DNA of 64,000 nucleotides, taken from the NCBI GenBank assembly GCA_951406725.2, contig OX597817.1, positions 20,956,001-21,020,000 of the forward strand, read 5' to 3'. The translations under genes were made by a program, and so were the position numbers. Positions 23,257 through 24,028 of this stretch are shown here, in pieces. This DNA comes from Octopus vulgaris. Its lineage: Eukaryota. Within the stretch, counting starts at the first letter, position 1. Each line of letters begins with the position of its first letter. A model generated the notes under the pieces. The model ran no database searches, was not told the DNA's origin, and worked only from the letters and a program-made list of their open reading frames with translations.

Positions 23257-24028
23257 TAAAAATTGAGGGAGATAAATTAATATTAATTTTAATATCAATT
23301 TTAAAACCAGTAGTCCAGCATTCAAAAAATCTGAGGAGTCAGAGAGAATTCAAATATATGTGTATATTGGCAGGGCTGGCCTGCTAGGTAGCCGGCCAGA
23401 ATGCTAGAAATAGATCATCAACGATCAAACTACAAGGGAAATTCTCTAGAGGAAGAATTCAGCGAAATATTAATTTTAATATCCACATATATTTGAATTT
23501 TCTCTGACTCCTCAGATTTTTTGAATGCTGGACTACTGGTTTTAAATTGATATTAAAATTAATATTAATTTATCTCCCTCAATTTTTAAATATTTAAATA
23601 AATACGTTCCCTAGTAGTAAGCTTTACCCGCAGTGAATTATTCACTGCAGCCCTTCGCTTCAGGAGTCTCTTAGCGCGCCGGAACCAAGACATTTGAAAT
23701 TTTATTCCCGATGTAATCAGTAAGACTAACCACGTGTCTGTCTTGACACAGAGAGCTGGGGTTAGTCTTGCGGTTTGCATCTCGAGGACCGAATGTACTG
23801 AAGAAGTCACGGACACTTGAATTATGCAAGCAATTCTTTTGTTAAGACCGAAACCGAGGTATGCATTTAAGTCTGTTTTTTATTTAATTTTTCATATGTC
23901 CTGCCCGCCAAATTTGGTTCTGGTGTTCGCTGAATTCTTCCTCTAGAGAATTCCCTTGTAGTTTGATCGTTGATGATCTATTTCTAGCATTCTGGCCGGC
24001 TACCTAGCAGGCCAGCCCTGCCAATATA
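23257..24028 (+). mobile_element. Hammerhead-containing element, family E: 545-bp monomer plus an inverted head-to-tail junction fragment, in (TA)n
   Basis: A (23257-23362) inverts to 23484-23588; B (23363-23466) inverts to 23926-24028. Confidence 0.85.
23792..23867 (+). ncRNA. Type-I hammerhead ribozyme, family E
   Basis: AAUGUA-CUGAAGA-AGUC...(extended hairpin)...GACC-GAA-ACCGAGGU-A|UGCAUU; 6-bp stem I. Confidence 0.75.

Follow-up and report, generated by a model that had tools for sequence, protein, structure and literature searches.

Structure of the locus

A repeat listing of the window, by which we mean the whole 64-kb stretch of Octopus vulgaris DNA that was analysed, was dominated by microsatellites. 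Two of these, both (TA)n tracts, enclose an element that consists of two arms in inverted orientation. Its parts are:

23197-23256, no strand: left (TA)n target tract (read from the sequence)
23257-23362, minus: outer part A of the left arm, the 'tail', unit ~105 to 1, its outer end being the fixed end E2 (97% identical to 23478-23588; the E2 class makes up 65 of the 130 arm ends of two-armed loci)
23363-23466, minus: inner part B of the left arm, unit 545 to 443, head-to-tail with the tail copy at 23363/23362 (99% identical to 23926-24028; matches to the junction 30-mer)
23467-23483, minus: 17-nt linker that separates the arms and equals unit 66-82 exactly in reverse complement (sequence comparison)
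23484-24028, plus: right arm, one full unit of 545 nt, its outer end 24028 being the fixed end E1 (alignment to other copies)
23544-23571, plus: AU-rich 12-bp hairpin within the tail (98.7% of cells paired in 13 units, no compensatory changes)
23630-23648, plus: 8-bp hairpin (100% paired in 13 units, one G-C/G-U change)
23710-23781, plus: long interrupted hairpin, which holds the inner-end cluster at unit 272-276 (two pairs changed on both sides between subfamilies)
23791-23868, plus: type I hammerhead (motif scan and 13-unit alignment; 474 exact matches to its 3' core across the genome)
24029-24131, no strand: right (TA)n target tract, with a single CA immediately after E1 (read from the sequence)

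The layout had been predicted as A-B-a'-C-b', where a' and b' are inverted copies of A and B. Self-comparison of the window bears this out: A (23257-23368) matches a' (23478-23588) in inverted orientation at 97% over 112 nt, and B (23363-23466) matches b' (23926-24028) at 99% over 104 nt. On the minus strand the copy runs from unit end to unit start without a gap at 23363/23362, which is the direct passage of b' into a' that had been predicted. The monomer proposed at 23484-24028 is indeed a unit of the family, but its permutation is set by the ends of the insertion, most copies are 546 nt long (the plus arm of the window is one base short, at 545 nt), and the 17-nt linker had gone unlisted. 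From its match to the unit, this linker (23467-23483) is likely to be an RT template jump or a repair patch. The locus is oriented with E2 at the left arm and E1 at the right arm, and both flanks are (TA)n, in which any target-site duplication would be indistinguishable from the tract.

Several other repeats were seen in the window. The AT-rich segment 43521-43912, in which 153-nt inverted arms (98% identical) surround a minimal hammerhead-like core, adjoins (TA)n and looks like another two-armed insertion of the type made by Penelope-like elements (PLEs). A type I hammerhead motif of another family, with a long helix II, occurs at 19969-20041 (minus strand) and again at positions 45-117 of locus L110. 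An abundant repeat of ~430 nt with an internal microsatellite (13635-14066, 27012-27424, 36558-36964, 50206-50609, 55624-56029, 56134-56517, 59612-60004 and 63124-63570) may correspond to an octopus SINE, which it resembles. A further dispersed repeat is found at 24178-24415, 31295-31777 and 33421-33903, with two copies 98% identical over 483 nt.

A dispersed family of non-coding 546-nt units

The assembly (2.8 Gb, 227 contigs) contains 781 first-look candidates for the unit core, and the 40 of these 781 that were scored are 97-100% identical. The b'-a' junction recurs genome-wide: a 30-mer across it has 308 exact matches (162 forward, 146 reverse), against 0 for the reversed pattern. Natural 546-bp head-to-tail arrays are common, some of them perfect, with up to three full units plus partial units per arm (L004 and L038 each have three full units); the unit itself varies from 545 to 547 nt between copies. 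A young subfamily of hundreds of copies (95-100% identical) could be distinguished from an older one with 261 motif matches (86-92% identical). No long ORF was found in the unit: in a natural trimer, stop-free runs extend to at most 41 aa for the plus strand, while the minus strand allows 97 aa, or 64 aa when counted from Met. The GC content around the locus is 34% (23001-24000), under the limit of 45-50% used for non-LTR retrozymes. One complete two-armed insertion (L039, 2874-6066) is tandem-duplicated together with 397 nt of flank, which is a duplication at the DNA level.

Judged by its sequence, the 546-nt family is a non-LTR retrozyme: it has the type I hammerhead motif, the head-to-tail tandems, the unit length, the low GC content and the lack of coding capacity by which such elements are recognised. 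Like the metazoan non-LTR retrozymes (PMC7229834; bioRxiv 10.64898/2026.07.22.740005), it consists of tandem units that are non-coding and low in GC, each with one type I hammerhead; the copies are dispersed and coexist with PLEs. The unit of 546 nt is larger than the 150-450 nt given in PMC7229834, but falls inside the range of 51-972 nt given in the bioRxiv report. Two properties set the octopus family apart: its arms are inverted, whereas the word 'inverted' is absent from the main text of PMC7229834, and it has two fixed start sites, which are not described for the retrozymes of either source in the available text. The main text of PMC7229834 makes no mention of octopus or cephalopods.

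Literature searches (octopus retrozymes; octopus Penelope plus hammerhead) returned no description of the 546-nt family, which subscription papers, Repbase or supplements may nevertheless hold as a repeat, and twin-primed or two-site-primed retrozyme insertions are not described in the titles and abstracts found. The kind of element is thus already known; the 546-nt family with its fixed two-end footprint adds to it.

The b'-a' junction is also present in contigs of 4 of the 24 listed sequencing runs that are possibly from RNA. Since DNA tandems yield the same junction, this was not counted as evidence. One run contig, labelled as another organism, carries a relative that is ~90% identical when aligned on 23470-24030; it has the same head-to-tail junction and resembles the older subfamily.

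Two fixed ends and two arms

The geometry of the insertions was determined for 90 non-redundant loci, of which 28 were obtained by core similarity, 60 from the first 100 junction matches and 2 by chance. Two head-to-head arms with the RNA 3' ends facing outward were found in 65 of the 90; the remaining 25 are one-armed (at an arm threshold of 22 nt). The outer ends fall at two fixed positions of the unit about 105 nt apart, E1 (unit 546/1-8) and E2 (~100-116). Among the two-armed loci, 47 are E1/E2 and 16 are E2/other, one end being eroded in these 16. One is other/other, none is E1/E1, and the single locus scored as E2/E2 (L032) stops on its left side ~20 nt short of E2. The rule also holds in the older subfamily, where 11 of 13 two-armed loci are E1/E2 (23 non-redundant loci, 30 fetched).

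Two-thirds of the sample (60 of 90 loci) had been picked through the junction, a choice that disfavours E1/E1, and E1-terminal sites were therefore listed genome-wide. E1 followed by six YA dinucleotides has 176 exact matches; among the first 100, inspection by eye found one opposite-strand neighbouring pair.

The inner ends of the arms behave differently from the outer ones. They are scattered along the unit, with one hotspot at unit 272-276 (11 of 155 ends in 5 nt, corrected p ~3e-5), and the arms are mostly joined with an overlap of 0-7 nt, i.e. by microhomology. The longest arm measures 2142 nt, which corresponds to ~3.9 units at most.

At some E1 ends the flanking tract starts with several CA. 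Three or more CA were counted behind 13 of 60 terminal E1 ends; the same was seen at 1 of 152 internal junctions, at none of 94 E2 ends and in 80 of 1416 background (TA)8+ tracts (p ~5e-5 for E1 versus background). These runs would be explained by slippage during initiation on a short CA-containing template, the alternative being a preference for compound microsatellites as targets.

The hammerhead motif and the fold of the unit

The original prediction had placed a hammerhead in C, and the motif scan agrees, with a type I motif at 23791-23868. It comprises a 7-bp helix I, a canonical core at 23798-23804 and 23850-23853, a long helix II and a helix III of 2 bp; cleavage is predicted after 23861, which is unit position 378, so that the cut RNA would begin at 23862. 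At the gathering thresholds of Rfam the hammerhead was not detected in the window, and an array gave only weak miRNA matches. The motif is complete on the plus strand only. Position 10.1-11.1 is an A-C mismatch in the young subfamily (unpaired in 10 of 13 aligned units) and G-C in most older copies, and the frequent polymorphism of the core falls at N7, a free position (23 of 80 loci).

In the 13 aligned units 97.3% of the cells pair. In 4 of the 62 pairs both partners differ between the subfamilies: one each in helix I and helix II, where the changes are compensatory, and two in the long hairpin. This count is reached by 104 of 500 shuffles and comes from two related subfamilies, with few independent events. 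The plus-strand unit folds with z = -6.5 relative to shuffles. Folded as circles, the window unit (z = -4.5) and the L004 unit (z = -2.8) are also more stable than expected, in line with the structured template that had been proposed; this fold is branched, with 59-61% of the bases paired. The hammerhead lies outside the minimum-energy fold of the ring and is locally 1.7 kcal/mol above the minimum. The two hairpins that had been singled out are both present, but somewhat shorter than proposed. The 9-bp hairpin at 23630-23648 would have a 1-nt loop and is effectively 8 bp, and in the stem 23722-23731/23760-23769 two of the 10 pairs depend on base 23730, which is different in 12 of 12 other aligned units, leaving a family helix of 8 bp.

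Hammerheads with a short helix III have been described as working in dimers (Cervera and de la Pena 2014, PMC4209133). Of nine Xenopus retrozyme dimers, only one was cleaved in vitro (Li, Clavereau and Pollet 2026, bioRxiv 10.64898/2026.07.22.740005), which, like the A-C mismatch and the minimum-energy fold, speaks against the proposed route.

One pair of linked changes, G287T and G289A, was observed on at least four haplotype backgrounds (L009, L031, L033, L035, L054, L074, L077, L083, L088, L091, L092 and L099). The older subfamily has these same two bases, and they make an inverted repeat with the hammerhead core perfect; the recurrence may reflect templating by fold-back or retention through recombination.

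Hammerhead viroids and satellite RNAs are likewise small structured RNAs with a hammerhead, in which a short helix III would favour dimeric cleavage. The octopus unit, being ring-sized, structured and non-coding, could accordingly be regarded as an endogenised viroid-like replicon that is copied from RNA to RNA and leaves DNA copies as by-products. We regard this as most improbable: a complete hammerhead is found on one strand only, the fold is branched, and the 3' motif of the hammerhead has no exact match in viral contigs. The family differs from the viroids and satellites further in its hundreds of DNA copies with marks of retrotransposition, and signs of RNA-RNA replication were not seen. 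Of the original prediction, the tandem or circular, structured, non-coding template is retained; its term 'replicon-like', taken in the viroid sense, is abandoned in view of the one-strand hammerhead, the branched, ~60% paired fold and the marks of PLE-type target-primed reverse transcription.

The footprint of a Penelope-like element

Insertions of endonuclease-containing (EN+) PLEs carry partial tandems, an inverted truncated copy and a one-sided tail of 30-40 bp, and are biased to (TA)n (Craig et al. 2021, PMC8557442; Arkhipova et al. 2013, PMC3846280). The 546-nt family shares with these elements the partial tandems, the inverted 5'-truncated copy, the tail at one end, the (TA)n bias, the microhomology junctions and the hammerhead in the terminal repeat. 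It differs from them in that it has no ORF, that the tail is ~100-116 nt instead of 30-40 bp, and that the whole unit is the repeat (compared with PMC8557442 and PMC3846280). A single head-to-tail junction is an ordinary part of the partial-tandem structure of PLE insertions (PMC8557442), and for this reason the junction at the window locus does not in itself show a circle.

With purified protein of the Anolis PLE, both DNA strands are cut and extended, and reverse transcription begins at two internal positions by which the tail is defined (Frangieh et al. 2024, PMC11167929), a scheme that we propose for the octopus family too. In that Poseidon system both strands share their start sites, which lack homology to the target. 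The 546-nt family has AU/CA-rich sites that look like the (TA)n target, and each DNA end uses a different one. For the head-to-head repeats of PLEs, Arkhipova et al. 2013 (PMC3846280) argued that the template is antisense. Such repeats need no antisense template if both DNA ends act as primers.

The octopus genome has a candidate enzyme. A search for GIY-YIG nucleases with PF01541 gave 6136 candidates, 150 of which were scored, and an intact PLE that encodes a 781-aa RT plus GIY-YIG protein is present in many near-identical copies. Ahead of its nuclease the protein has a C-x4-C-x2-C motif, as described for the Neptune and Nematis clades (PMC8557442). Copies of the intact PLE likewise terminate in (TA)n, at two positions ~40 nt from each other; in the two two-armed copies examined, L138 and L149, each arm has one of them. 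This young autonomous element (L136, 244-5460, and L133-L150) has two ORFs, the upstream one of 479 aa and the RT plus GIY-YIG one of 781 aa. Its tail measures ~40 nt, and a minimal hammerhead of the U3-A8 type lies ~113 nt ahead of the element's end.

As architecture, tail and hammerhead are all hallmarks of PLEs, the unit might itself be the terminal repeat (pLTR) of a rare autonomous PLE, with the copies as its 5'-truncated tandem and inverted fragments. A precedent for this comes from Xenopus, in which 24 of 57 retrozyme families match known repeats, nearly all of them PLE termini (bioRxiv 10.64898/2026.07.22.740005). In the octopus, the sequence upstream of the copies was found to be another unit, an inverted arm or flank, and an RT or GIY-YIG ORF contiguous with the unit was found in none of 113 loci; the original prediction had allowed that the b'-a' adjacency might be confined to the pLTRs of an autonomous PLE, and this is not what the loci show. 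Apparent links between unit and PLE at L140 and L151, where copies lie near PLE fragments, proved to be separate neighbouring insertions. With 150 of the 6136 GIY-YIG candidates scored, a rare parent may exist, but we consider the pLTR-fragment explanation very unlikely. At one locus (L032, 2300-2380) a retrozyme arm lies in (TA)n directly behind the end of an autonomous PLE, as a nested insertion or a co-integration.

The pLTR of the intact PLE differs from the unit, and none of the 113 loci is fused to an ORF; that a PLE mobilises the family in trans is therefore inferred from its footprint: the 546-nt unit would be moved by the protein of another element. The unit shows no similarity at E < 0.4 to the 3' ends of 49 PLE-locus records, a small part of the 6136 candidates, which counts against naming one of these PLEs as the driver.

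The form of the template

Not one of the 147 copies that cross the predicted cut site has an indel there, and the site shows no excess of inner ends (4 of 155, p = 0.14), from which it follows that the template was continuous across it. Template jumping between hammerhead-cut linear monomers was considered as the main route and rejected on the same two observations.

The clearest information on the template comes from substitutions private to a locus. Leaving out the duplicated second block of L039 and gap columns, 28 such substitutions, in 18 loci, are common to all overlapping copies, 23 of them (13 loci) across both arms; 108 were found in single copies. At private sites where at least three copies overlap, 11 are fully and 1 is partly shared, and gene conversion is on this account an unlikely source of the shared variants. 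All six units of L090 carry a double variant that the rest of the assembly lacks, and a variant of L036 has two matches in the assembly, both within L036. At 14 polymorphic sites the two arms agree in 396 of 410 comparisons, while random draws would disagree in 23-51% per site; 10 of the 14 discordant comparisons are due to G287T/G289A, which differ between arms or units in several loci. The shared variants would look the same whether they came from one RNA molecule or from two sister molecules of one mother locus.

Because a linear multimer alone cannot spread a new variant to all units, the lineages pass repeatedly through a monomer. From these sequence patterns it is likely that the template is of monomer length and circular, in its simplest form a ring copied more than once round.

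The same element with the same two-ended priming of PLE type could also be copied from an uncut linear multimer or a dimeric ring, the homogeneity within a locus being inherited from mother arrays. Position 23 of L090 (G,C,G along one arm, C,G along the other) fits a template of at least two units better than a monomer ring, and the discordance of G287T/G289A points the same way. The arrays are short, as the longest arm illustrates, and a scar-free cut site is equally expected. Moreover, in vitro the dominant substrate of the Anolis PLE was unprocessed RNA, and insertion did not need hammerhead cleavage (PMC11167929). Against this stand the 11 fully versus 1 partly shared private sites, which a linear-only route does not produce, and the assembly contains no mother array for the variants of L090 or L036; unfixed mothers may, however, be absent from this haplotype. 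On balance we hold a linear or dimeric template to be unlikely.

Private variants without a mother, as seen in both cases tested, would also be expected of a viroid-like replicon. The 28 shared private changes over ~21,000 multi-copy positions are, however, of the same order as the 108 single-copy ones, and ordinary ageing of the mother DNA explains them.

A model for the insertions

A monomer-length ring being the preferred template, the following route can be proposed. Tandem genomic copies would be transcribed on the hammerhead strand, and the RNA would be cut between two hammerheads and ligated to a ring of 546 nt. To judge from the ends, a PLE protein would then cleave a (TA)n tract in both strands, and either end of the DNA would prime reverse transcription at an AU-rich site of its own, E1 or E2. 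The cDNA would run from RNA 3' to 5' over a variable distance, past the junction and the cut site, for up to ~3.9 units, and the two cDNAs would finally be joined with 0-7 nt of microhomology. The generation of tandem cDNA from primed circles by the RT of a LINE or PLE has been proposed by Cervera and de la Pena 2020 (PMC7229834).

We thus read the locus at 23257-24028, with a probability of roughly 0.7, as a non-LTR retrozyme with a non-coding 546-nt unit, inserted as two arms and likely brought into (TA)n by a trans-acting Penelope-like RT/GIY-YIG enzyme that worked on what was probably a circular monomer RNA. A more specific version is offered tentatively, as something we find quite possible but would not bet on: each insertion may be a single event, in which the two RT molecules of a PLE dimer travel round the same 546-nt ring, primed from the two ends of one break at sites ~105 nt apart, with the E1 primer often stuttering in a telomerase-like manner to add (CA)n before elongation.

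Implications

That retrozyme circles of animals are reverse-transcribed by a rolling-circle process, and that PLEs mobilise them, are proposals in the literature consulted (PMC7229834; bioRxiv 10.64898/2026.07.22.740005). With young copies, strict rules for the ends, private variants and an intact PLE with the same footprint, the form of the template, the start sites and the driver can be tested in the octopus family with the existing in vitro PLE assay. The ~105-nt tail shows that a distance of 30-40 nt between the two start sites is not obligatory. If two RT molecules indeed share one ring, the insertions would be genomic evidence that animal retrozyme circles are actual templates of reverse transcription, and the tail and inverted arm of PLEs would be explained as twin priming. 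If the stuttering at E1 is real, the CA runs would be a natural trace of repeat addition by a telomerase-related RT.
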